Part shown: positions 1-40,296 of the stretch, piece after piece
How positions within the stretch are numbered: the first letter of the stretch is position 1
Layout of the letters: every line of letters starts with the position of its first letter
Virus record (IMG/VR): IMGVR_UViG_2585427770_000004
Length of the DNA: 40,296 nt
Origin: a virus
Taxonomy: Duplodnaviria; Heunggongvirae; Uroviricota; Caudoviricetes
Direction: 5' to 3' (one strand)
Notes under the pieces: generated by a model
What the model was told of the DNA's origin: nothing
Database searches by the model: none
What the model saw: the letters and a program-made list of their open reading frames with translations, nothing else
Translations under genes and position numbers: made by a program

Positions 1-1158
1 ATGCTCACCGTTAAGCAGATTGAAGCAGCAAAGCCGAAAGAAAAACCATACCGCCTACTCGATGGTAATGGCCTGTACCTTTATGTCCCTGTGTCAGGGA
101 AAAAGGTATGGCAGCTTCGCTACAAGATTGACGGTAAGGAGAAAATCCTGACCGTAGGAAAATATCCGCTTATGACTTTGCAGGAGGCAAGGGATAAGGC
201 ATGGACTGCGAGGAAAGAGATCTCGGCTGGCATCGATCCGGTAAAAGCGAAAAAGGCTTCGTCTAACAACAATTCCTTTAGTGCCATTTACAAGGAATGG
301 TACGAGCACAAGAAGCAAGTCTGGTCAGTAGGCTATGCAACTGAACTTGCCAAAATGTTTGATGACGACATTTTACCCATCATCGGCGGTCTTGAGATTC
401 AGGATATTGAGCCGATGCAACTGCTGGAAGTAATCCGCAGATTTGAAGATCGCGGTGCAATGGAGCGAGCCAACAAAGCCCGCAGAAGATGCGGCGAGGT
501 TTTCCGTTACGCTATTGTCACCGGAAGGGCTAAATATAACCCGGCACCTGACCTTGCTGACGCCATGAAGGGATACCGCAAGAAGAACTTCCCGTTTCTT
601 CCTGCAGACCAGATCCCGGCATTTAACAAAGCACTGGCAACATTTTCAGGAAGCATCGTATCGCTCATTGCGACCAAAGTTTTACGCTACACAGCCCTCA
701 GAACAAAAGAGCTTCGTTCCATCCTATGGAAGAACGTCGATTTTGAAAACAGGATTATCACCATCGACGCCAGTGTGATGAAGGGACGCAAAATTCATGT
801 GGTTCCTATGTCAGACCAGGTGGTTGAACTTCTCACTACGCTAAGCTCAATCACCAAACCAGTATCAGAGTTTGTTTTTTCCGGGCGCAACGATAAGAAG
901 AAGCCAATCTGCGAGAACGCGGTATTGCTTGTGATCAAACAAATTGGCTATGAGGGTCTGGAAAGCGGTCACGGATTCAGGCATGAATTCAGCACAATTA
1001 TGAACGAGCACGAATGGCCTGCTGACGCTATTGAAGTGCAACTGGCACATGCCAACGGCGGATCTGTGCGTGGGATTTACAACCATGCTCAGTATCTCGA
1101 TAAACGCAGAGAAATGATGCAATGGTGGGCGGACTGGATTGATGAAAAGGTGGAGTGA
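1..1158 (+). CDS. int: Tyrosine integrase (P4/IntS-like family)
   Basis: 385 aa; N-terminus MLTVKQIEAAKPKEKPYRLLDGNGLYLYV typical of P4-type integrases; C-terminal catalytic region with HGFRHEF (HxxR) and RGIYNHAQY (Tyr nucleophile). Confidence 0.9.
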   Translation: MLTVKQIEAAKPKEKPYRLLDGNGLYLYVPVSGKKVWQLRYKIDGKEKILTVGKYPLMTLQEARDKAWTARKEISAGIDPVKAKKASSNNNSFSAIYKEWYEHKKQVWSVGYATELAKMFDDDILPIIGGLEIQDIEPMQLLEVIRRFEDRGAMERANKARRRCGEVFRYAIVTGRAKYNPAPDLADAMKGYRKKNFPFLPADQIPAFNKALATFSGSIVSLIATKVLRYTALRTKELRSILWKNVDFENRIITIDASVMKGRKIHVVPMSDQVVELLTTLSSITKPVSEFVFSGRNDKKKPICENAVLLVIKQIGYEGLESGHGFRHEFSTIMNEHEWPADAIEVQLAHANGGSVRGIYNHAQYLDKRREMMQWWADWIDEKVE

Positions 1159-1375
1159 TCCACCTTAACCACTATCGAAGAGCACAAAGCCTTGCAATCC
1201 AGTACAAAACTTTGTTTGTCTCATCAACCATAGCAAGTCATCGATCGATTGAGGCCTGGATGATAGACTTCATGCCTTTGATTATTAGCTGATAGAAGAA
1301 ATGTTAAAGCTATTTGCAATAGTACACCTCGATTGGTGTTATCAACACGCTAAAATGTTCTGAGATTAAGTCAAG

Positions 1376-2803
1376 ATGGAGTTAATTATGTTCAGAAATC
1401 AATATGCTATATCAGACGCTTCACTAAGTGGTAACATCAGTCCTGACATGGAATGGCACAGGATGAGCATATACCTAGGAGAGGGGGCAGAGGTTTTCGC
1501 TAATGACAATTGCATTATCATAGGTAAAGTCGTCAATAGCTGCGACCCTAGCATGTCCCCTAATGATATAGCAGACGCTGTATCATCATGCGACAGCATT
1601 GAAAGTGTTTTTGAACTGACTGATGGGATGGCAGGAAGATACATAATCGCTTTCATCATAAACTCAGAGGTATATATGCTCACTGATGCTTGCGGATTCA
1701 AAAGAGCTCTATTTATGAGGTATAATGGTGCTAAAATAATAACATCATCTGAAAATTACGCCGCTCACATATTTGGGTTTAACATTGTCATTAATGAAGA
1801 TATAAAAGATATGATGCGGGATGAATCCTACAGAAGAAAAGAAAGCCCATGGTTTGGTTTGACTTCTCCAGATGAAAGATTCAGTTATTTAATACCAAAT
1901 CACTACCTGTATATAGGTGATTTTACGTTACATCGCATGCCCCCGCCAAAAATTGGTGGTGATGTAATTACCAGCGCATCATCAATGATAAAGAATACAA
2001 TTTTAGCACTTTCTGAAAGGTATAAGTTGATACAGCCTATAACGGCTGGCATTGACAGTAGGATTCTTCTTGCAGCATCTGAATCAGTTAAAGATAAAAT
2101 CGATTATTATGTATTTGGAGACGAAAACTCAAACCACGAAGATGTGTCCGTTCCTAAAGAGCTAGCAAAAATAGTTGGCGTAAATTTTAATGCAATCACC
2201 CCTCCGTCAGCACCAGATGAGTTCAAAAAGAAAATCGAAATGACAGTTCTTAGTGGTAGGGATTTGCCAAAAATAGATAATATATACTATCACTATAAAA
2301 ATTCTAACTTTGAAAAAGTAAACATCAATGGTAATGGCGCAGAGATATTCAGGTCGTATTATGGCGCGTCGATATTAGAGTTTAGCGCCAAGTCACTCTC
2401 TATACTTTCTGGAACTAAAAAATGGCCCATCATGGAAAGAAAGATTTATGATTGGCTAACATTAACTGAAGCCAAAAGATTTTCTCAAGAGAACAACATA
2501 TCAATTACCGACCTTTTCTATTGGGAGCAAAGAATGGCAATATGGGGGTCTATGTTCCCTTTAGAGCAAGATATCGCAATGGATGAGGTGTCGCCATTCA
2601 GCAATAGAAAGCTAATTTTCACAATGCTGAGCGAATCTTCAAGCAAACGTAGATCACCAGACTTTAAATCGGCAACTTTGTTAATTAATTTTATGGATGA
2701 CAGATTAAATAAAGTGCCTGTAAATCCAAAATCATCAAACCATATTATAAACTTTATAAAGGCCCATACAATAACTCAGTTAATTGTTAAGAAAATAATC
2801 TAA
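1376..2803 (+). CDS. Asparagine synthetase (AsnB)-like synthetase-domain protein without N-terminal glutaminase cysteine; cargo gene
   Basis: 475 aa, markedly AT-rich by eye; segment GRYIIAFIINSEVYMLTDACGFKRALFMRYNGAKIITSSE resembles the AsnB GATase-II fold, but the N-terminus is MELIMF with no Cys2; degenerate PP-loop ITAGIDSRILL in place of SGGxDS. Confidence 0.45.
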   Translation: MELIMFRNQYAISDASLSGNISPDMEWHRMSIYLGEGAEVFANDNCIIIGKVVNSCDPSMSPNDIADAVSSCDSIESVFELTDGMAGRYIIAFIINSEVYMLTDACGFKRALFMRYNGAKIITSSENYAAHIFGFNIVINEDIKDMMRDESYRRKESPWFGLTSPDERFSYLIPNHYLYIGDFTLHRMPPPKIGGDVITSASSMIKNTILALSERYKLIQPITAGIDSRILLAASESVKDKIDYYVFGDENSNHEDVSVPKELAKIVGVNFNAITPPSAPDEFKKKIEMTVLSGRDLPKIDNIYYHYKNSNFEKVNINGNGAEIFRSYYGASILEFSAKSLSILSGTKKWPIMERKIYDWLTLTEAKRFSQENNISITDLFYWEQRMAIWGSMFPLEQDIAMDEVSPFSNRKLIFTMLSESSSKRRSPDFKSATLLINFMDDRLNKVPVNPKSSNHIINFIKAHTITQLIVKKII

Positions 2804-2814
2804 ATTTTAAATTT

Positions 2815-2847
2815 ATCAATATCGGGGAATGCAACCCCGATATTGAT
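2815..2847. terminator. Bidirectional terminator: perfect 13-bp inverted repeat between convergent genes
   Basis: ATCAATATCGGGG-AATGCAA-CCCCGATATTGAT with AT-rich flanks, between the AsnB-like gene (+) and the beta-helix gene (-). Confidence 0.6.
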
Positions 2848-2871
2848 TTAGATTGCGTGATTGATATGCAT

Positions 2872-4518
2872 TTAAATTATTGATAGCGTTCTGATTTCAT
2901 TCCCGACCGGTGATGTCATAACTATCCGTGTTACGTTAGCGCCGGACACCGTATACGTCAGAATTATGTTACCAGCGGTTCCTATATTAAAGTTTTGTTT
3001 AGCCCCTGATGAACCTATAGCTTTGGCATTCGTTAAAGTATACGTATTACCTGAGGTAAATCCTGTAGAAATTACAAATTGTTGATCAACTTTAAAAGGA
3101 ACTGTCATTGTTACGGATGTTGACTCGACAGTAACAAATGGCAGGCTAGGCTGTTTAACCCCCGTCACATCCCAGAACTCACAGTCGCGCACCAATGCTC
3201 GACTAATTAAACCGCGAGTTACAGGGAAGGTTGTCTGGTCCTGCGATAAGAATGCCCCAACGATTTGCACGTTATCGAGCGTAATATCGTGTACCGTGGT
3301 CCCATCTATAGGACTTAACGTTGGTGATGCACTCCAGAGTTTACCCCCCTTCATTTTGATACTCACAGGGGCATTTGGGTCTCCACCATAATATGCACGG
3401 ATACGCTCAAATTTACAATCTGTGAGTTCATAGCTGCCGCGTTGATTGGTTTCGAACATTGTGTAAGCCTCGCCAGGCACGCCATGTCTAACATTGCTGG
3501 CAACAACACGGGGGTTATGTCGGAACGATGCCGACGTAACAGAGAAAACCGGCGCGCAGACATCATTGATTATAATGTCCGTGGTATAACGCCCTGTAAC
3601 AGCGTTCTCAGAGTTACTCATATCCGAATATAGCGCTTTAAAACGGGAGAAGTCTATGTTAAGCCCAACCCCTGCGCTTTTCGGGAGGGGGCCAAAATCA
3701 AGCCCGTCAATAACAATTTTCTTAGGGAAGTAAAGAGTATCATCACGGCCCACAGTTATTAAAGTTCCAGGGTAAGTAGACACACTTCCTGGATAAACTT
3801 TAATATCTTTCAGGGTGATATTATTAAATAACGTAGGACTTATAGGCGAACCGCTACTCGGCCCTTGCCCGGCAGTGACGGCAGCATTGATAATGCCGTT
3901 ACCTGGAACGCCGTTACGCAAACCAGTTAGCTTGATATTCTCCATGTATAAATCACCATCAAAGTAACCACCCGCATCTGAGCGAGTTGCAATGATGTTT
4001 CCAGGCATGTCTGGCGATGAATTGAATGTTGAGTTTGTGACGTACAGGTCGCCAATCCCTGTTACAAGAACCCCGCTGCGGCCGATGTTGCAGTCATTGA
4101 TTTTTAAGTAGTTCTGGAATGGCATATGGAAATCAATCCGGCTTAAGTCGCACCTTTCAAATCGCACATTTGCACAATTATTGCTGCCAGTTGCGCCCCA
4201 CCCTTCCCCGTTTGCGGTTGCGTTTTTGATAGTTACATTCATTGAGTTACCCAACCCGATGGTGTAGGAGTAGATATCTCCCGTTCCTGTGAACGAGTCG
4301 GCAACCGAGGGCGCGAATAACCCATCAACGATGACATCGTAGCTTTCGTTGATTTCAAGACGGCTATCGCTGAAGTTTTGTGTTAGCGGCCTATTAATAA
4401 ATGAAGTATTAATCAGGCGAACTCGTGACGCTTGATTAATGTAAATAATTCGATAATTCTTTGTAAGACTTTCATCTATGGTTAGACCTTTAATAGTTTG
4501 CACGATTACGCGAAACAC
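2872..4518 (-). CDS. Orphan right-handed beta-helix protein (tailspike receptor-binding / polysaccharide depolymerase-like) lacking a head-binding domain
   Basis: 548 aa rich in G/N/T/S/V runs typical of pectate-lyase-like beta-helices (e.g. NGVPGNGIINAAVTAGQG); GTG start at 4516-4518 with an in-frame stop 10 codons upstream; no P22-type N-terminal adaptor; lies 78 bp downstream of the UmuD'-like gene on the same strand. Confidence 0.5.
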   Translation of the reverse strand: MFRVIVQTIKGLTIDESLTKNYRIIYINQASRVRLINTSFINRPLTQNFSDSRLEINESYDVIVDGLFAPSVADSFTGTGDIYSYTIGLGNSMNVTIKNATANGEGWGATGSNNCANVRFERCDLSRIDFHMPFQNYLKINDCNIGRSGVLVTGIGDLYVTNSTFNSSPDMPGNIIATRSDAGGYFDGDLYMENIKLTGLRNGVPGNGIINAAVTAGQGPSSGSPISPTLFNNITLKDIKVYPGSVSTYPGTLITVGRDDTLYFPKKIVIDGLDFGPLPKSAGVGLNIDFSRFKALYSDMSNSENAVTGRYTTDIIINDVCAPVFSVTSASFRHNPRVVASNVRHGVPGEAYTMFETNQRGSYELTDCKFERIRAYYGGDPNAPVSIKMKGGKLWSASPTLSPIDGTTVHDITLDNVQIVGAFLSQDQTTFPVTRGLISRALVRDCEFWDVTGVKQPSLPFVTVESTSVTMTVPFKVDQQFVISTGFTSGNTYTLTNAKAIGSSGAKQNFNIGTAGNIILTYTVSGANVTRIVMTSPVGNEIRTLSII

Positions 4519-4596
4519 CCCTGAGAACCGCCATGAACAAGGGTTTCATGATTTGTGATTTTAGTTTGGTACGCAATTTGGTACACAGCACAATTT

Positions 4597-4983
4597 TCAC
4601 TTCAGCGGGTAGTCATCAAACTCACCATAACGAGCATCGTTAATGATGTATGTGATTACGCCAAATATCGCATCAGGGCTCGTTCCGTCATCGTGCAGAG
4701 GTATAGCTTCCCTTCTTCCTGTCTGCAAATCTTCCAGGTGAACCTTGGGTGATTTTCGGTATCGCTTAATCCTCAGCTCACCTTCCATTCTGCAAACAAG
4801 TAATGAGCCGTCGCATGGTGATAGCGAAGCATCCACAACCAGCAGCGCGCCATTCAGGATACCTTCCCGGTAGTGCGTCGCACCCGCTCGCATGAAGTAC
4901 GTTGCCGCTGGCCTGCTTATGATGCACTTGTCGAGCGATATGCGCTCTTCAACGTAGTCTTGTGCTGGACTCGGGAATCCCAT
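4597..4983 (-). CDS. UmuD'-like protein (S24 peptidase fold; HumD-like analogue of processed UmuD)
   Basis: 128 aa starting MGFPSPAQDYVEERI, matching the region immediately after the UmuD Cys24-Gly25 cleavage site (GFPSPAADYVEQRI); the ASGDSM serine motif appears replaced (AGATHY); RBS GGAGGTG upstream. Confidence 0.7.
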   Translation of the reverse strand: MGFPSPAQDYVEERISLDKCIISRPAATYFMRAGATHYREGILNGALLVVDASLSPCDGSLLVCRMEGELRIKRYRKSPKVHLEDLQTGRREAIPLHDDGTSPDAIFGVITYIINDARYGEFDDYPLK

Positions 4984-5000
4984 AACTCACCTCCGATGGA

Positions 5001-5020
5001 TACTGTATATTAATACAGCA
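5001..5020 (-). promoter_or_regulatory. LexA operator (SOS box) upstream of the UmuD'-like gene
   Basis: TACTGTATATTAATACAGCA has a perfect CTG-N10-CAG core with AT-rich spacer, 18 bp upstream of the start codon at 4983. Confidence 0.7.
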
Positions 5021-5118
5021 TTACTGATCGGCGGTGTCGATCAATAGCGTTTGTGGTGCTAAACTTCAGACCTTTCAGAAGCTACTGATACTTATCAAAA
5101 AACTATTATAGGTGTATT

Positions 5119-6216
5119 TTGGAAATCGATAACAGTCCACCAAGAAAGAATAACCTTCAGTATATACAGGCGCTTAGGGCTATTGCAGCTATGCTTGTCG
5201 TACTTTGCCATGCAAGGGATTTTTTGAAAGGAACAGAATATGAATGGCTGGCTCAGCGATTATTTTGGCCTGGTGCATTCGGAGTTGATTTATTTTTCAT
5301 CATTAGTGGTTTTATCATAATTTATACGTCTCATAGCTACCAAAGCAATGATTTGATAAAGTTTATTAAAAAACGTTTCTTAAGAGTTTGGCCTCTATAT
5401 TTCATCATGACTATTGCATATATAGTCATTGTTAAAAATGTTGATTTATCTTTAATGCATGGGTTTTCATATAACCAATCATCTAGCTCATTTGAATTAA
5501 CAAACATAATCAAAGGTTTGCTTTTCATTCCACTAAACACTGAGTCACCTATATACTTTGGGCCTCCATCATTGTTCGTTGGATGGACCCTCAATTATGA
5601 AATATATTTTTATTTAGTTTGCGCCATTGGAATAGCGCTGGGGAAGTTTAGGTATACATTTTATATATTATGGTTTTTCATTACACTGTTAGCTTTGCCA
5701 TCTATTGCGGGTGTATTCGACAGACCAAAAATTGAAGGTTTAGGATATATAAATTTAACCATGCAAAGCCTGATTTGGGAGTTTGTCTTCGGTGCGATTA
5801 TTGCTATCCTATACAAAAGTGGTAACTTTTCAATTAGAGACAAAAGGATTGCAATACCATTAATTTCGATTGGAATCATAATCCCTGTATGGGCTTACAT
5901 AACACAGTTTGATGCTGGGCATGGGATTTTTCATTCAGGGAAATATTTTTGCATAATGTTTGCATGCTTTACTGCATGCTCTGACTACATACAAGACAAC
6001 ATCAAAATACCACGTATTTTCATCATGATTGGTGATGCTTCATACTCTTTGTATTTAGTTCATCCAATTACGTTTATATTATGCTTTAAGATGATAGATT
6101 GGCTTGGGATGGCTGATTTATCAAAAAGCTTCTCGTTTATTTTTATTGTATTTATAACATCTGTAGCTTTTGCACTACTAAGCTATAAATATATCGAGAA
6201 AAATATTCCAAGATAA
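5119..6216 (+). CDS. Membrane acyltransferase family 3 (Oac/OafA-like O-antigen acetyltransferase); probable lysogenic-conversion gene
   Basis: 365 aa, polytopic and hydrophobic; N-terminal motif IQALRAIAAMLVVLCHA typical of Acyltransferase_3; TTG start at 5119 with no in-frame ATG before the motif; AT-rich. Confidence 0.75.
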   Translation: MEIDNSPPRKNNLQYIQALRAIAAMLVVLCHARDFLKGTEYEWLAQRLFWPGAFGVDLFFIISGFIIIYTSHSYQSNDLIKFIKKRFLRVWPLYFIMTIAYIVIVKNVDLSLMHGFSYNQSSSSFELTNIIKGLLFIPLNTESPIYFGPPSLFVGWTLNYEIYFYLVCAIGIALGKFRYTFYILWFFITLLALPSIAGVFDRPKIEGLGYINLTMQSLIWEFVFGAIIAILYKSGNFSIRDKRIAIPLISIGIIIPVWAYITQFDAGHGIFHSGKYFCIMFACFTACSDYIQDNIKIPRIFIMIGDASYSLYLVHPITFILCFKMIDWLGMADLSKSFSFIFIVFITSVAFALLSYKYIEKNIPR

Positions 6217-6223
6217 TTTTGAA

Positions 6224-6246
6224 GCGGCATGTTTGAAACATGCCGC
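6224..6246. terminator. Bidirectional terminator between convergent acyltransferase and tailspike genes
   Basis: Palindrome GCGGCATGTTT-G-AAACATGCCGC flanked by T/A runs in the 36-bp gap between 6216 and 6253. Confidence 0.6.
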
Positions 6247-6252
6247 TATTGG

Positions 6253-8175
6253 TTAGGCAGAAATATTCACAATCCCCCATGTACTTCCATTCCACACCCA
6301 TTGGACAGTAGGGTCGGAAGGATATGTTGCTGGAGATGTTCTGTAGGACACCAAGCCGATTGGGAAAGAACCTGTGTTCTCTGTCACAGTAGGCTTTACG
6401 CTAGATCTCATTTTTACTTTCTCCCATCCGCAGAATACTGGAAGAAAGGTTCCGTTATACGGGCTAAAATACGCTCCTCCAACATAAGCGCTCATTCCGG
6501 ATTCAACTGTAATCCTTAATCTGTATGCTTTACTTTTGTCGTTGGTTGGCGCTGAAACTTTGTATAACTTCCACCCTCCAACACCCATATCGTAGAACTT
6601 ATTAACTGACATATAGATGGAATTAGTACCATCTTGGGCTTCTATAGCTATCTCAAGTGGTGTGTCGCCTTTAAAGTAAAAAGCTCCACGAATGAAACCT
6701 GTCTGTGTTTTAGTTAAATTTAGGGTTATTCTGCAAAGTTGAGATGCGTTAGTGACTCCAAACCATCTACCGCAGCCAGATGGTTCATTAGGGTCAGAAC
6801 CAACCTTTCGTTCGTTCGGTATAATTAAAAGGGAATAGTCAATAGGTGCTCCGTAGACTCCATCAATAACCGACCAATCTCCAGAAGGGCAAAGATTAGA
6901 ACCGGAGACACTGAACGTATCTCCTCCCTGTGCGCCTGCTGTAGGGTCTGTCCCTAATATGGTATTCATGGGGCTCATGGTTGAGGCCCAGTTACCATAT
7001 TGCACACGCGCGCCAAGTATGGTCCACGGCCCACGTATTTTCCCATTGCCCGTAACCTCGCCATACAAACCTATCACAACATTATGCTGATTTGGGGTGC
7101 TATTGTTATAGAGCAAATAATCGCCGCTTCCCGATGTGTCAAGACCTATAAATGTGTTTGCGTTCCCCTCATACGGAGCACCGGTCTGGCGACTAAAACC
7201 CGATCCAGTTATGATCAGACCACCACCGCAAAGCTGCTCAAATGTATTTTGATTTATAGATCCATCAGAGATGTCAATTATGAATCTGCCACCACCTGAC
7301 GTAGTACCTGTTTTGATGCGTACAAATTGATTCCAAAAACTCCCGCCACCCCATTCAACCAACCCAGGCAGAGTGTATGCGTCTGATGATAAAAATCTTA
7401 TATCGCCGGTCGTATCAATGTTCGAGATAATAGAAAACTGTAGCCCTCTAATGTATAACGATTTACATGAAAGGCCAGTTACATTTATAGATTTACTATG
7501 AAGGATTAGGAAATCCCCGTTAGGGATTCGGCCAACACAATCAACGTTACAGCGGATCACAAAGCGACCAGCAGAAGCATGAATGCCAGTCAGCTTGGTC
7601 ATATCAACGACATAATCGCCTGGAGGGATATGCAATGATTTTCTGTTTTTCCCATACTCAACTAATTGTGAATAATCACCGTTAGCATAATCCAATGCCT
7701 CACACAGTTTAGCAGTAACATCTGTACCATCCGGGAATACTCCCCATCCACGCACGTCTAAATCATCACGCCAGCGATAAATCTGCAATGCGGGATATTT
7801 GGTTGCCCCATCAGGGTCTTCAATCTGCTGCCTTAACTGATCTGGATCATACTTCAACACGTTTGGATAGTTGAACTGCTGTGTACCATAAGCATCGTAC
7901 ACAGCCATAGAATGGCCTTGCACGGTAACGAATTTGGCAATCTGTCCGTTATATACAGGATAACCAGCAGCGTTAATGATGATTGGTTGCGAAACAGGAA
8001 CGTGAGAGCCGTCTTCGTTCTCCACATAAACCTGAATCTGGTTTTCAGGATTTACCGGGTCAGTGTCAATTTTACCGATATAAATTTTGCCATTGGCAAC
8101 CGCTTTAAAAGAACGCGCCATAGTGAAGAGTTGCGAAGGCATGCTTACTACAACATTGGCTGTAATGTCTGTCAT
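6253..8175 (-). CDS. Tailspike protein (P22 gp9 family) with conserved N-terminal head-binding domain and divergent receptor-binding domain
   Basis: 640 aa; N-terminus [97 protein letters not shown] matches the P22/HK620/Sf6 adaptor domain as recalled; the remainder is beta-helix-like but unrecognised. Confidence 0.9.
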
Positions 8176-8233
8176 TTAATTTGCTCCAGATACAAGGAAT
8201 CGCCGCAGCGTAGCTACGGTGAATTTTGGGCAT

Positions 8234-8256
8234 AAAAAAACCCAGCCGAAGCTGGG
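8234..8256 (-). terminator. Rho-independent terminator between ant and tailspike
   Basis: Minus strand reads CCCAGC-TTCG-GCTGGG followed by TTTTTTTATG. Confidence 0.6.
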
Positions 8257-8275
8257 TCGTTGCGTTGGTTATCTG

Positions 8276-9154
8276 TCAGTAGTTATGTACTGAAGGAGGC
8301 AATTCTTTATTCTTAAGTCTCATCCATGCGGAAAGATTCGTTGGTCCGTCTGGCTCATTAATATCAACATCTCGTGTGTGGTTTATTAAAACGTCTCTCG
8401 CCATTCCGATAACATACGAGAATTCATGACCGTAGTCGTAGCATCTGCCGGAATAGTTCGATTGAATTTGTTTTAGCGCCGGATACAGTTCGCGGAATAA
8501 TGCCTGTGAGCGGTTGGCATAATCCCATAACCATACAAGGCTGTTTGCTTCTTTTGCAGAAAGCTCGTTGGTTTTCTTCTCTTGTTTGCCAATGAACTCA
8601 CCTTCAAGCACTACCCTGTGGATGTACTCTACGGCCAGCGGGATTTGTTCAATTGAAAGTTCATCAATGCTGTCAATACCAAAACGCTGATGAACCATAT
8701 TGTATGCATCGTCATAGCGAAGTCCTTTCCTTCCTACCAGCATGTTTACTGCATCGCGTAGCGGTGTTCTTTCCTCAACAGTGGTTTTCTTTCCTTTTAC
8801 ATACTCGCCATGTTTGCGAATTGAAGGCAGAACTTCTGCTGTTACCCACTTGCGGAATTTGTGCGGGACTGAACCTTTATTGACTGCATCGCGGCAGCGC
8901 AGAACCAATGTATACATACCTGATTCGCTCACAATGCTTAGATTCTGCTCACCACCAAGGGTGTAACTTAAAGTTACTCCCTTTTCATCGTCATCAAGTG
9001 CAGTAAGCGCCTTGCGTGAGTTAGTCAAATCTAAAGCATCACAAACATCTTTAGCTACAAACCACGGCTCACCGCACTTGTTGATGACGCGGATTTCACT
9101 GTCGCCGAATTTGAAGATGGTGAAATCGTTTTGTGCCTTTGCTATACTTTTCAT
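8276..9154 (-). CDS. ant: Antirepressor Ant (KilA-N/Bro-N type)
   Basis: 292 aa directly downstream of arc on the same strand; N-terminus [30 protein letters not shown] matches the antirepressor N-terminal domain. Confidence 0.8.
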
Positions 9155-9222
9155 GTCAATATTTCCTAATCCGATTTGTTGATGCCGAAGCCCTGACTGT
9201 TACAGCAGTTGGGGCTTCAACT

Positions 9223-9384
9223 TTACGCACCAATGCGCCCTTCCTTCTTAAAGCTTTCCATTACTCGCTGATAAATCTCAGAATTAACAGACCGACCATT
9301 TTCTTCCGCCACCTTGCGTACCAAATCCAATACTTCTTTAGGCCACCGCAAATTGAACTGTGGCATTTTGCTCATTCCTTTCAT
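9223..9384 (-). CDS. arc: Arc repressor
   Basis: 53 aa MKGMSKMPQFNLRWPKEVLDLVRKVAEENGRSVNSEIYQRVMESFKKEGRIGA, essentially P22 Arc as recalled; the track ORF 9223..9447 extends upstream over the operator. Confidence 0.9.
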   Translation of the reverse strand: MKGMSKMPQFNLRWPKEVLDLVRKVAEENGRSVNSEIYQRVMESFKKEGRIGA

Positions 9385-9399
9385 GTTCACCTCACAATA

Positions 9400-9418
9400 T
9401 AGGTCCACGGTGGACCTA
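9400..9418. promoter_or_regulatory. Mnt operator (O-mnt)
   Basis: Perfect 19-bp palindrome TAGGTCCACGGTGGACCTA between arc and mnt. Confidence 0.75.
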
Positions 9419-9426
9419 TTGAGAAT

Positions 9427-9447
9427 ATAGTAGAGTGCTTCTATCAT
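9427..9447. promoter_or_regulatory. Arc operator (O-arc)
   Basis: ATAGTAGAGTGCTTCTATCAT is the reverse complement of the recalled P22 arc operator ATGATAGAAGCACTCTACTAT. Confidence 0.75.
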
Positions 9448-9474
9448 GTCAATACACTAACTTGGAGTGATGGC

Positions 9475-9729
9475 ATGGCTAGAGATGATCCGCACTTTAA
9501 CTTCCGTATGCCTTTGGAAGTAAGAGAAAAATTGAAATTAAGAGCCGAGGCTAACGGAAGGTCAATGAACTCTGAGTTATTACAAATCGTTCAGGATGCA
9601 CTATCAAAACCATCACCGATTACAGGATATCGCGACGAAGCTGAACGCTTGGCTGATCAGCAGGCTGAGCAGTTCAAGGCTATAGTGTTTGAGACACTTA
9701 AAAAGATTTATGAAAAGGATTTGAAATGA
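9475..9729 (+). CDS. mnt: Mnt repressor
   Basis: 84 aa MARDDPHFNFRMPLEVREKLKLRAEANGRSMNSELLQIVQDALSKPSPITGY, near-identical to P22 Mnt as recalled. Confidence 0.9.
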   Translation: MARDDPHFNFRMPLEVREKLKLRAEANGRSMNSELLQIVQDALSKPSPITGYRDEAERLADQQAEQFKAIVFETLKKIYEKDLK

Positions 9730-10061
9730 GATTTCTATCACTGTTCTTGTTAGCAGTTGTCTCTTCTTCCAGTGCTGAGCTGCGCGAGCTTCAAACGGGT
9801 AATGACCTTCTTTACAACATTCAACAAGGTAAAAAGGGTGATGATTTTTCATCGCTTTACATTACTGGATATTTGCGCGGAGTAACTGACTCATTGATAC
9901 TAATTGGTTCTCTATGTCCTCCTGATGGCGTTGACATGTATCAATACACCGATATCGTTGAGAAATATCTAAACAAAAACCCAGAATCAAGAAATGAGAG
10001 TGCAGTTATACTAACCGCCCTAGCAGTAGGAAAAACATTTCCGTGCAAAAAGAATCAATAA
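9726..10061 (+). CDS. Secreted/periplasmic protein of unknown function (signal peptide), translationally coupled to mnt
   Basis: 111 aa; N-terminus MRFLSLFLLAVVSSSSAEL is signal-peptide-like; two Cys; ATGA start/stop overlap with mnt. Confidence 0.5.
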   Translation: MRFLSLFLLAVVSSSSAELRELQTGNDLLYNIQQGKKGDDFSSLYITGYLRGVTDSLILIGSLCPPDGVDMYQYTDIVEKYLNKNPESRNESAVILTALAVGKTFPCKKNQ

Positions 10062-10076
10062 CAATAAGGGCTTAAA

Positions 10077-10466
10077 ATGAAATTGATTATAGCAATGGCT
10101 TTCCTTGTCTTCTCGTTTTCTGTCTCAGCAGAGTGCTGGGTCGTTGGAGATATGCACGGAATAAGCTATTCAGAACGAAATAATTTTCAACCGGAAGAAG
10201 ATGGTTTTAGTGGAACATTCATCATTAAGACAAACGGTGAAGATGCCAGTATCACATATTCTGGGACGGATGCGGGCGGCATGGCTTACAAAGCATTGTC
10301 TAAAAACTCCATCATTGGAATCGGCGCGAATGGCGAAACTCAACGAGTTATCGACTCATGGGTAATACATCCTAATGGAACAGTTTTAATGTCGAAAACC
10401 ATTTCTGGTTATGGGAATATGGATTCAACCAAAGCTTTTGTTGGAAAAGTAAAAAGAAAATGTTAA
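10077..10466 (+). CDS. Secreted/periplasmic protein of unknown function (signal peptide)
   Basis: 129 aa; N-terminus MKLIIAMAFLVFSFSVSAEC is signal-peptide-like; RBS AAGGG upstream; C-terminal KRKC. Confidence 0.5.
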   Translation: MKLIIAMAFLVFSFSVSAECWVVGDMHGISYSERNNFQPEEDGFSGTFIIKTNGEDASITYSGTDAGGMAYKALSKNSIIGIGANGETQRVIDSWVIHPNGTVLMSKTISGYGNMDSTKAFVGKVKRKC

Positions 10467-35387: not shown

Positions 35388-35612
35388 ATGAATCAGACAT
35401 ACATTCCATCATGCTTGAGAAATCTGCCAAAGCAGAAAGCAAAGCCCCGCAAGCAAGCCATAAAGGGCGCTAAGGCAGAGGTTATTGAACAAGCAATACA
35501 ATTGCTCAGGGAGGAGTTAAGAAGTGGCAAGCTCGAAGGAATGATGATGCCCTATCAGCGCGGATATCTATCGGCGATTAGTAAGTTGGAAGTATTGAAG
35601 AGTGAATTATGA
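35388..35612 (+). CDS. Hypothetical early-left protein
   Basis: 74 aa (GTG at 35385 or ATG at 35388), lysine-rich N-terminus, directly after gene 24. Confidence 0.45.
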   Translation: MNQTYIPSCLRNLPKQKAKPRKQAIKGAKAEVIEQAIQLLREELRSGKLEGMMMPYQRGYLSAISKLEVLKSEL

Positions 35613-35674
35613 ACTATCTGGAATTTCCGGATGGTTCATTGTTTTGGCAGCAAACCACTTATTTGAGGTGAGAT

Positions 35675-36145
35675 ATGACAATATCATGGAGCGTACCTTT
35701 TCCTGAATCAGAAACTGAACATGATGGAATGCCTGTTTTCTGGAGATTCCAGGCGACAGTTGAAGAAGATGGAATCAAAATATTCGCACTTCAATATATA
35801 GCCTTTCATCAGACAGAGCATTATGCATGGTTGGTTCCTGCGCATTGGATTGTTAATTTTAAACCAGCACCAAATCAGTGGTTACAGGAATGGAAACAAA
35901 AGAGAAATAGATATGCAATTAAGAAAGTAGCAAAAAATGCAGAAAGATCTTTTGCATTCCCAACGAAGAAACTTGCCATTGAAAGTTTATTGCGCCGGAA
36001 GAAATACCATTTAATGAGAATCAAACAAGATTTGGCTGTTGTATCAACTCTTGTTGATGGGATGAAGAATATTGATACATCAACACCAGATATTGAATAT
36101 AACTTTGGACACAACCAAGAAACAGAAAATTGGGTATTTTATTAG
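35675..36145 (+). CDS. Hypothetical early-left protein (AT-rich cargo)
   Basis: 156 aa; no family recognised; followed by a hairpin and a terminator. Confidence 0.5.
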   Translation: MTISWSVPFPESETEHDGMPVFWRFQATVEEDGIKIFALQYIAFHQTEHYAWLVPAHWIVNFKPAPNQWLQEWKQKRNRYAIKKVAKNAERSFAFPTKKLAIESLLRRKKYHLMRIKQDLAVVSTLVDGMKNIDTSTPDIEYNFGHNQETENWVFY

Positions 36146-36249
36146 TACAAATAAGCACTGTGTATTCATTCCAACGAGTGAATACACGGAGCAATGTCGC
36201 TCGTAACGAAACAGGAGCCGACTTGTTCTGATTATTGGAAATCTTCTTT

Positions 36250-36277
36250 GCCCTCCTATGTGAGGGCGATTTTTTAT
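36250..36277 (+). terminator. Rho-independent terminator inside the early-left operon
   Basis: GCCCTC-CTATGT-GAGGGC followed by GATTTTTTAT. Confidence 0.6.
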
Positions 36278-36295
36278 CTGTGAGGATATGAACAG

Positions 36296-36664
36296 ATGTC
36301 AAACATCAAAAAATACATCATTGATTACGACTGGAAAGCATCAATAGAAATTGAAATCGACCATGACGTAATGACAGAGGAAAAACTTCACCAGATTAAT
36401 AATTTCTGGTCAGACTCTGAATACCGACTCAATAAACACGGCTCTGTATTAAATGCTGTATTAATCATGCTGGCGCAACATGCTCTGCTTATAGCAATTT
36501 CAAGCGACTTAAATGCATATGGTGTTGTGTGTGAGTTCGACTGGAATGATGGAAATGGTCAGGAAGGATGGCCTCCAATGGATGGTAGCGAAGGAATAAG
36601 AATTACCGATATCGATACATCAGGAATATTTGATTCAGATGATATGACTATCAAAGCCGCCTGA
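36296..36664 (+). CDS. Acidic hypothetical protein (candidate anti-restriction / anti-defence)
   Basis: 122 aa with many D/E (EIEIDHDVMTEE, DWNDGNGQEGWPPMDGSEGIRITDIDTSGIFDSDDM); located in the early-left slot where lambda carries ral. Confidence 0.5.
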   Translation: MSNIKKYIIDYDWKASIEIEIDHDVMTEEKLHQINNFWSDSEYRLNKHGSVLNAVLIMLAQHALLIAISSDLNAYGVVCEFDWNDGNGQEGWPPMDGSEGIRITDIDTSGIFDSDDMTIKAA

Positions 36665-36739
36665 GCGCGGCGTTACCGCATACCAATAACGCTTCACTCG
36701 AGGCGTTTTCGTTATGCAATCAAACAGAAGGAGCATCCT

Positions 36740-39708: not shown

Positions 39709-39724
39709 TGGCGGTTTTTTTTAT
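39701..39724 (+). terminator. Rho-independent terminator
   Basis: CCGCC-TGAT-GGCGG followed by TTTTTTTTAT. Confidence 0.6.
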
Positions 39725-40095: not shown

Positions 40096-40296
40096 ATGCA
40101 ACACGAACTACAGCCTGATTCCCTGGTTGATTTGAAATTCATCATGGCCGATACTGGCTTCGGTAAAACCTTCATCTATGACCGGATTAAGTCCGGCGAC
40201 CTGCCAAAAGCCAAAGTTATCCACGGTCGAGCAAGATGGTTATATCGTGACCATTGTGAATTCAAAAATAAGCTCTTAAGCCGCGCCAATGGGTAA
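40096..40296 (+). CDS. xis: Excisionase / AlpA-family DNA-binding protein
   Basis: 66 aa; LVDLKFIMADTGFGKTFIYDRIKSGDLPKAKVIHGRARWLYRDHCEF fits the AlpA/Xis winged-helix family; immediately upstream of int in the circular map. Confidence 0.65.
   Translation: MQHELQPDSLVDLKFIMADTGFGKTFIYDRIKSGDLPKAKVIHGRARWLYRDHCEFKNKLLSRANG

Follow-up and report, generated by a model that had tools for sequence, protein, structure and literature searches.

The DNA analysed here is a stretch of 40,296 nt (the window; IMG/VR record IMGVR_UViG_2585427770_000004) excerpted from a P22-like (Lederbergvirus-type) prophage, which runs from the ATG of an IntS/P4-type integrase gene (int, position 1) to the stop codon of an excisionase gene (xis, position 40296) resembling hkaC of HK620. 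Between int and the gene for a Head_binding tailspike, positions 1159-6252 are occupied by four open reading frames (ORFs) in the orientation +, −, −, +, namely ORF A, ORF B, humD and a gene for a family-3 (AT3) acyltransferase (Table 1). Very probably this block is a recombination scar, in which lysogenic-conversion modules of two different P22-like prophages have been stacked with a dead tailspike gene between them. The initial annotation had placed four genes of mixed orientation between integrase and tailspike at these coordinates, where they are indeed present, and had taken them for one cargo island, possibly a new system; instead, the halves of the island come from two separate prophage types, joined inside an attachment (att) core.

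The interval between int and the tailspike gene is the lysogenic-conversion slot of P22-like phages, as had been recognized from the start: the same position holds oac in Sf6 and gtrABC in HF4s and E. coli GS04. In the Kapi1 paper, genes between int and tailspike gave no lipopolysaccharide phenotype; they are unrelated to the genes described here. Read as a scar, the locus would preserve one host-range switch in a temperate phage, with the old receptor domain and conversion gene left beside the new pair. Such scars help to date and reconstruct tailspike exchange, and they call for caution in annotation, as the relic tailspike is entered in public genomes as a 543-aa 'hypothetical protein'.

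Two parental prophages and their junction

Positions 1-4504 of the window are 100.0% identical to a prophage at argW of E. coli (L088), and the two sequences diverge exactly at 4504. L088 contains int, a 471-aa ORF and an intact gene for an 843-aa Head_binding tailspike (tailspike A), and a second phage of this type in IMG/VR has the same arrangement at 94% identity. The int gene itself, with nucleotide identities of 100% to L088 and about 95% to int of Sf6 and HK620, is the left flank of the island and by this match part of the parent-A segment. Positions 4486-6789, in turn, match a decayed sbcB-type prophage of strain NCTC9038 at its dacD-side end with 99.4% identity; the matching stretch contains humD, the acyltransferase gene and the 3'-terminal part of the gene for the window's own tailspike (tailspike B). 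When the junction was used as a probe, homology in each of the matches listed from 541 complete E. coli genomes began at window position 4486, where prophages integrated between dacD and sbcB have their edge. Parent A, as reconstructed from these alignments, was an argW-integrated phage with an IntS-type integrase that carried int, the spacer, ORF A and the 843-aa tailspike A. Parent B, reconstructed in the same manner, was of the sbcB/dacD type with a phage 2851-type integrase, and carried attP, humD, the AT3 acyltransferase gene and tailspike B.

A 13-bp attP core of the phage 2851 type is annotated in mEp234, and its bases align with window positions 4498-4510. At this place attP and attL read TTTCACGATTACG, the intact tailspike A gene reads TTTGCACGTCCTTGCG and the window reads TTTGCACGATTACG. 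At the equivalent position, the intact tailspike A gene has GTTTGCACG TCCTTGCG and the window has GTTTGCACG ATTACGCG, the core-like sequence GTTTGCACG lying at codon 300/301 of tailspike A. The alignment thus places the crossover in the CACG that both sides have in common, within the 13-bp att core of an sbcB-type integrase.

The contiguous junction was found in none of 5,426 complete E. coli genomes, and the exact junction was absent from IMG/VR and from deposited phage genomes. Likewise, no deposited phage genome has the exact four-gene block, which bears out the initial impression of an undescribed combination. A search via the relic protein located the window arrangement in two draft E. 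coli assemblies, GCA_000713605.1 and GCA_016678315.1 (L086 and L087), beside yfdC/argW and with 100% identity over 13.5 kb; because the identical 13.5 kb occurs in two independent assemblies, the junction is no assembly artefact. In strains ANT and DAM, all four sequences are present at dacD/sbcB with about 99% identity, in a different order and interrupted by the insertion sequence (IS) IS1. Towards the other end of the window, homology to the sbcB-type prophage of ANT (99.6%) stops at 39722, just before xis. As for tailspike B, the 3' 537 nt of its gene are 99.4% identical to the NCTC9038 remnant, and its receptor-binding part is rare, with matches in 3 of the 5,426 complete genomes.

In the seawater strains ANT and DAM, ORF A and a 658-aa truncated tailspike A are bracketed by two copies of IS1B. 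In ANT (locus L001, NZ_CM127463.1 4029042-4046894), the decayed sbcB-type prophage around this IS1B unit also has humD and the acyltransferase gene. The IS1-bracketed ORF A module looks like a possibly mobile copy.

To explain the hybrid, we suggest that the parent-B integrase would have inserted phage B at a secondary site in the tailspike A gene of a resident prophage A. A homologous crossover in the early region left of xis, near window position 39722, would have resolved the pair into one 40-kb genome, and the hybrid phage would now rely on tailspike B as its working tailspike.

Joining by an integrase-independent route, whether illegitimate (microhomology) recombination or an IS-mediated rearrangement, is unlikely as the origin of the junction. 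Such a route would fit the short stretch common to the two sides, only about 8 of 9 bases (GTTT(G)CACG) with the remaining core matching poorly, and IS-mediated rearrangements are frequent in the corresponding neighbourhood of other strains. Yet of some 40 kb of possible positions the breakpoint lies inside a 13-bp core, the expected outcome for a tyrosine recombinase, and positions 4486-4520 contain neither IS sequence nor a target duplication. Several points nonetheless weigh against integration followed by resolution. Outside GTTT(G)CACG the secondary site resembles the core weakly; the role of the integrase is read solely from the position of the breakpoint, at which microhomology joining is possible; tailspike B and L088 share just 91% identity in the head-binding region; and the order of events and the recipient genome may have been other than supposed here.

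Integrase-mediated insertion at a secondary site, which we prefer, has a likeness in the secondary att sites of λ: the breakpoint lies in the att core, at a site with partial similarity to that core. The tailspike exchanges of Sf6, HK620 and CUS-3 (the 'boundary sequences' annotated in CP000711) are alike in that specificity was changed and the head-binding type kept. Unlike these precedents, the target here was a gene inside another prophage, and the old receptor domain and conversion gene were kept as a scar rather than cleanly replaced.

That the four genes form one coherent, undescribed accessory system, selected together and acting in O-antigen change, exclusion or mutagenesis, might be suggested by their contiguity between hairpins, by the recurrence of all four in ANT and DAM, and by the absence of the block from deposited phage genomes. 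We regard this as extremely improbable. The halves exist apart, L088 having only ORF A and tailspike A and NCTC9038 only humD and the acyltransferase gene; they meet at an att core, and one of the four members is a truncated gene. In ANT and DAM their order differs and IS1 copies lie between them, humD accompanies many unrelated cargoes, and PADLOC gave no significant defence-system match among the four products.

The tailspike relic, humD and the acyltransferase

The gene identities initially assigned were all recovered, with an AsnB fold for ORF A (by structure), the HumD equivalog model for humD, Acyl_transf_3 for the acyltransferase and a tail-fibre PHROG for ORF B. The β-helix gene ORF B had been called an orphan; it is in fact a 5'-truncated tailspike gene. 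Its product matches PHROG 16586 ('tail fiber protein') at positions 424-961 of 963 and agrees at 100% identity with residues 301-843, the C-terminal 543, of two intact 843-aa Head_binding tailspikes (P0126 and P0127). In P0127, Head_binding (PF09008) covers residues 1-113 and the start of the pectate-lyase-like β-helix (PF12708) covers residues 124-170; the AlphaFold model of intact tailspike A is confident from about residue 123. The ORF at 2872-4518 gave no Pfam match and is devoid of the head-binding domain (PF09008). With residue 301 as its first, the relic starts within the β-helix domain and thus does not contain a complete β-helix receptor-binding/depolymerase domain. The listed start of the ORF is a fortuitous GTG at 4518 in phage-B sequence; every possible start is a GTG that no Shine-Dalgarno sequence precedes, and codons 1-5 consist of att-arm DNA. 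Judged by these features, ORF B is a non-functional relic of the 3' 543 codons of a tailspike gene. Given its 100% identity to the intact gene, its open frame reflects a recent event, not selection.

The relic could be transcribed by read-through from humD, and the intervening spacer (4505-4596) showed no stable hairpin (fold z-score +1.4). A functional role as a free, virion-independent depolymerase or decoy, expressed in the SOS response from the LexA-controlled humD promoter, would be compatible with this position just behind humD, in the same orientation and across a hairpin-free spacer, and with a frame open over 543-548 codons. The P22 tailspike without its N-terminal domain reportedly still folds and cleaves O-antigen. 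We nevertheless consider such a role very unlikely, as the relic has lost about 175 residues of the β-helix domain, its start at 124-170 among them, in addition to the head-binding domain, has neither an ATG nor a Shine-Dalgarno sequence, opens with five codons of att-arm DNA, and derives from an event too recent for the open frame to show selection. Database truncations of this tailspike are also of many lengths (446-741 aa), as expected of decay or partial contigs.

The humD product matches the NCBIfam HumD equivalog NF051876 (207.3 bits against a cutoff of 120) and Pfam Peptidase_S24 (35.3 bits against 23.3). When the proteins are aligned, its Gly2 falls on the first residue of UmuD' (1UMU), the Gly25 of full-length UmuD (8GMT); Thr stands in place of Ser60, and Lys97 is conserved. 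From this alignment, humD encodes a UmuD' homologue predicted to be made directly in the shortened form, with no cleavable N-terminal arm. Judged from the LexA box in the spacer between the divergent humD and acyltransferase genes, humD is predicted to be under LexA control; nothing else in the window matches TACTGTATATNNANNCAG, and the box does so with 0 mismatches, where 0.14 matches would be expected at up to 2 mismatches. Its neighbourhoods mark humD as a common companion of att sites in sbcB-type and other lambdoid and P22-like phages, in many of which humD-like genes adjoin the att site or gtrA.

HumD of phage P1 is reported to substitute for UmuD', partnering host UmuC in SOS mutagenesis, and by extension the humD product here would act as a UmuD' mimic with host UmuC. 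The two are alike in the directly shortened form, in matching the HumD equivalog model, in the upstream LexA box found here and in lacking a umuC partner gene, none being present in window positions 1-9500. They differ in that the present gene lies beside the att site of lambdoid and P22-like prophages, not on P1, and in the Ser60-to-Thr replacement.

The acyltransferase matches Pfam Acyl_transf_3 (PF01757; E 1e-28, 100.7 bits against a cutoff of 31) over residues 14-356 and PHROG 3333 'O-acetyltransferase' (E 1e-59). Alignment with Sf6 Oac reveals equivalents of 'VLCHA', with the histidine of the first transmembrane segment (TM1), and of 'LFFIISGF' (the FFxISG motif). The gene lies between the int/att region and the tailspike gene, convergent with the latter, and in NCTC9038 its companions are humD and the 3' end of tailspike B. 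Among complete genomes, the humD-acyltransferase-tailspike B module is carried by NCTC9038, ANT and DAM; the carriers are assigned to serogroup O38, ANT and DAM by wzx/wzy annotation and NCTC9038 by strain number only. This AT3 integral-membrane protein is a candidate Oac-type O-antigen O-acetylase of parent B and, by analogy with Sf6 Oac, would O-acetylate the O-antigen recognized by tailspike B.

The int-oac-tailspike locus of Sf6 and the int-gtrABC-tailspike loci of P22 and HF4s resemble the present one in the slot used, in having a low-GC modifier beside the receptor gene and in the hairpin between convergent genes. Sf6 Oac is of the same enzyme class as the AT3 protein, yet only 23-24% identity connects the latter to Sf6 Oac and Sf101 OacB. 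In contrast to these loci, two modifier modules are stacked here, and ORF A encodes a soluble AsnB-fold protein rather than a Gtr or AT3 membrane protein.

ORF A as a candidate conversion factor

The combination of the four genes had been singled out as the most likely site for new biology. That lead narrows to a single gene, and the remaining novelty is ORF A, a candidate for a new enzymatic class of phage conversion factor from an uncharacterized family. Searches with ORF A gave nothing significant in Pfam, NCBIfam, PHROGs, PADLOC or phmmer, nor with a 46-sequence profile against PDB sequences, and its AsnB fold is detectable by predicted structure only. The predicted protein has both domains of that fold, an N-terminal nucleophile (Ntn)-type domain and a C-terminal PP-loop ATP pyrophosphatase domain. 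There is no match to PF00733 (Asn_synthase) and a weak NAD-synthase PP-loop match at residues 214-290. At the expected strand-helix junction lies an invariant PP-loop-like motif, TAGxDSR (T223-A-G225-x-D227-S-R229). At least 150 homologues of about 480 aa occur in many phyla, and none was found in 50,697 deposited phage genomes. Across 46 sequences the family begins with MFRNQY and has no conserved cysteine at or near position 2; it should therefore be unable to hydrolyse glutamine.

β-Lactam synthetase (1JGT), the carbapenam synthetase CarA (1Q15) and TsnB9 (7YLZ), glutaminase-less members of the class-B asparagine synthetase superfamily, resemble ORF A in having a PP-loop-like motif at the expected place and no N-terminal catalytic cysteine. 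ORF A has 10-15% sequence identity to these proteins and TAGxDSR instead of SGGxDS. Unlike them, its family is located in polysaccharide loci and beside phage receptor genes, not in antibiotic clusters.

Outside phages, the five contexts of ORF A homologues that were examined all lie in polysaccharide loci, among genes for Wzx, Wzy, glycosyltransferases, pyruvyl transferases or sugar dehydrogenases. Across another 42 genomes with 81 immediate neighbours, the most frequent neighbour families were glycosyltransferases and Wzy. In phages (E. coli, Enterobacter and five Bacillus-type prophages), ORF A always abuts a receptor-binding gene. Its partner is tailspike A in E. coli and a tailspike differently anchored at its N-terminus in Enterobacter, both in convergent orientation; in all five Bacillus-type prophages the homologue lies directly downstream of a tail-fibre-type receptor gene and is followed in two by a Wzy-like gene. 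These receptor genes encode BppU_N and Beta_helix (two of five), a β-helix without a BppU_N match (two of five), or BppU_N and YomR_C (B. cereus). GS04 has gtrABC, in place of ORF A, as the partner of this same tailspike-A receptor domain. The ratio of nonsynonymous to synonymous substitution rates (dN/dS) between ORF A and the Enterobacter copy is 0.17, and ORF A is intact in prophage remnants that are otherwise IS-ridden.

In two IMG/VR contigs of Bacillus-type prophages (L093, 6438-7679; L095, 6438-7682), a 414-aa ORF follows the ORF A homologue and precedes the lysis genes. The L093 copy has a Wzy_C domain (O-antigen polymerase/ligase-like), and the L095 copy was assigned from position and length. 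These loci suggest a multi-gene glycan-conversion cassette beside a β-helix receptor protein.

ORF A is a candidate conversion factor matched to tailspike A. Its assignment to polysaccharide tailoring is suggested by the fold, the polysaccharide contexts, the adjacency to receptor genes, the exchange with gtrABC and the signs of selection. In the scheme we propose, ORF A would be a cytoplasmic, ATP-dependent enzyme of the AsnB/β-lactam synthetase fold that adenylates a carboxylate and forms an amide without hydrolysing glutamine. Most likely it would alter a carboxyl-bearing sugar or pyruvate ketal of the host surface polysaccharide, and the altered polysaccharide would escape recognition by depolymerase-type receptor proteins such as tailspike A. 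Three points weigh against this scheme. AsnB-family enzymes use a catalytic lysine, and no lysine is invariant in the ORF A family; the O38 cluster shows no obvious dedicated uronic-acid gene, though O38 strains carry ORF A; and the Gtr and Oac modifiers act at or beyond the inner membrane, whereas ORF A is soluble.

For the family as a whole we make a more tentative proposal, which we would put somewhat short of even. It may comprise widespread glutaminase-less, AsnB-fold, amide-forming polysaccharide tailors, serving as a single-gene conversion factor of temperate phages of Gram-negative and Gram-positive hosts, coupled to β-helix depolymerase receptors. If true, phage seroconversion would have, next to Gtr glucosylation and AT3 acetylation, a third enzymatic route, and this one would operate in the cytoplasm. 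Modification of surface glycans by the ORF A family would also bear on serotyping, on host-range prediction for phage therapy and on the search for enzymes of amide-modified sugars in O-antigens and capsules.

A minor but real possibility is that ORF A has nothing to do with surface polysaccharide and is instead a moron with a role in metabolism or defence, or helps the neighbouring receptor-binding protein to mature. Its product is cytoplasmic, neighbours of receptor-binding genes are often assembly chaperones, and the distant Brevibacillus homologues have GlutR-like and DMFA2_C neighbours, not sugar genes. Polysaccharide loci, in contrast, are the setting of the closer non-phage homologues, and in P22-like phages ORF A is convergent to the tailspike gene in the oac/gtr slot. 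ORF A has moreover been kept in the hybrid phage despite its dead partner tailspike, as well as in decayed prophages. As to defence, PADLOC run on the four products gave a sole match, ORF A to PD-T4-6 at a chance-level E of 0.032, and with no significant match a defence-system reading was rejected.

Distant ORF A homologues without sugar-gene neighbours occur in Brevibacillus loci (L020-L084, e.g. L039, L041, L043, L060 and L061). Among the 42 scanned genomes, a glutamyl-tRNA-reductase-like (GlutR-like) gene neighbours a distant homologue in 5 and a DMFA2_C-domain gene in 6; from the locus list, these genomes appear to be the Brevibacillus loci. The Brevibacillus sub-family may have a different substrate.

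Within E. coli, 5 of the 5,426 complete genomes carry ORF A, two of serogroup O38 and three of O91. The O91 O-antigen presumably contains glycine-amidated glucuronic acid, and no ligase is apparent in the O91 gene cluster. A role as the O91 glycine-amide ligase was rejected as a general explanation, since only 3 of 27 O91 genomes carry ORF A, together with the two O38 genomes. The three O91 carriers share a wzy allele about 0.7% different from that of the other 24 O91 genomes.

Layout of the locus and other features of the window

Table 1 Features of the int-tailspike locus (window coordinates)
Feature	Position	Strand	Details
int, IntS-type (P4-like) integrase	1-1158	+	Pfam Phage_integrase, Phage_int_M, Arm-DNA-bind_3
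Hairpin over int stop codon	1147-1166		8-bp arms, 4-nt loop; about −14.8 kcal/mol for 61-nt stretch, z −2.6
Spacer upstream of ORF A	1159-1375	+	GC 38.7%
ORF A	1376/1388-2803	+	475/471 aa; alternative upstream ATG at 1376 gives 475 aa
Hairpin between convergent ORF A and tailspike A 3' ends	2815-2847		perfect 13-bp stem; −23.5/−21.5 kcal/mol (two strands), z −4.6/−5.9
ORF B, listed ORF	2872-4518	−	548 aa; tailspike-A relic part 2872-4504
Hybrid att site, parent-A/parent-B junction	4497-4510		TTTGCACG joined to ATTACG
Phage-B att-site right arm, now humD-to-relic spacer	4505-4596	−	99.4-99.6% identity to attL flank of NCTC9038 and ANT
humD	4597-4983	−	128 aa
LexA (SOS) box	5001-5018		TACTGTATATTAATACAG, perfect CTG-N10-CAG, 18 nt upstream of humD ATG, in the divergent humD/acyltransferase spacer
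AT3 acyltransferase	5119-6216	+	365 aa
Hairpin between convergent acyltransferase and tailspike B 3' ends	6223-6247		perfect 12-nt arms; −17.6/−17.1 kcal/mol, z −6.0/−6.8
Tailspike B	6253-8175	−	640 aa; Head_binding at residues 1-113

The block had been described as AT-rich. Measured against the phage background of 47.8 ± 3.0% guanine plus cytosine (GC; 1.4-kb windows, rest of phage), this is true of ORF A (36.8%) and the acyltransferase gene (33.6%), but not of ORF B (44.8%) or humD (51.2%). Only ORF A and the acyltransferase gene, the two candidate conversion genes, are compositionally foreign.

Palindromic terminators had been proposed on both sides of the block. Stable hairpins are present over the int stop codon and at the tailspike B end, with a further one inside the island (Table 1), and in Sf6 a terminator is annotated at the position matching the hairpin at 6223-6247. 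Against their reading as terminators, the canonical T-run is absent from all three, and a terminator scan called none. The hairpin between ORF A and the relic is the native bidirectional stop structure of parent A.

The spacer behind int probably holds the putative ORF A promoter. Its positions 1159-1351 are 84-86% identical to the int-gtrA interval of HF4s and GS04, and 1160-1223 are also present after humD in mEp234 and Sf101. The spacer was rejected as the phage's own attP: the attP core of Sf6 and HK620 lies upstream of int, and the window, whose edges are the int ATG and the xis stop codon, leaves the HK620-type core outside.

Beyond the locus, the sole Rfam match in the window is the sar antisense RNA (RF00262, 65.6 bits) at 9156-9222 (+), in the immI region, adjoining ant (8276-9154, −) and small Arc/Mnt-like genes. 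A 111-aa ORF at 9726-10061 (+) has a Rap1a domain (PF18602, type VI secretion immunity family; E 1e-14) and is followed at 10077-10466 (+) by a 129-aa ORF without a family, in an immI-region patch of about 40% GC; these two ORFs may be another moron. A second low-GC patch (36-40%) lies in the early region at 35500-36700, and contains a 156-aa ORF without a Pfam family (35675-36145) and a DUF2528 ORF (36296-36664).

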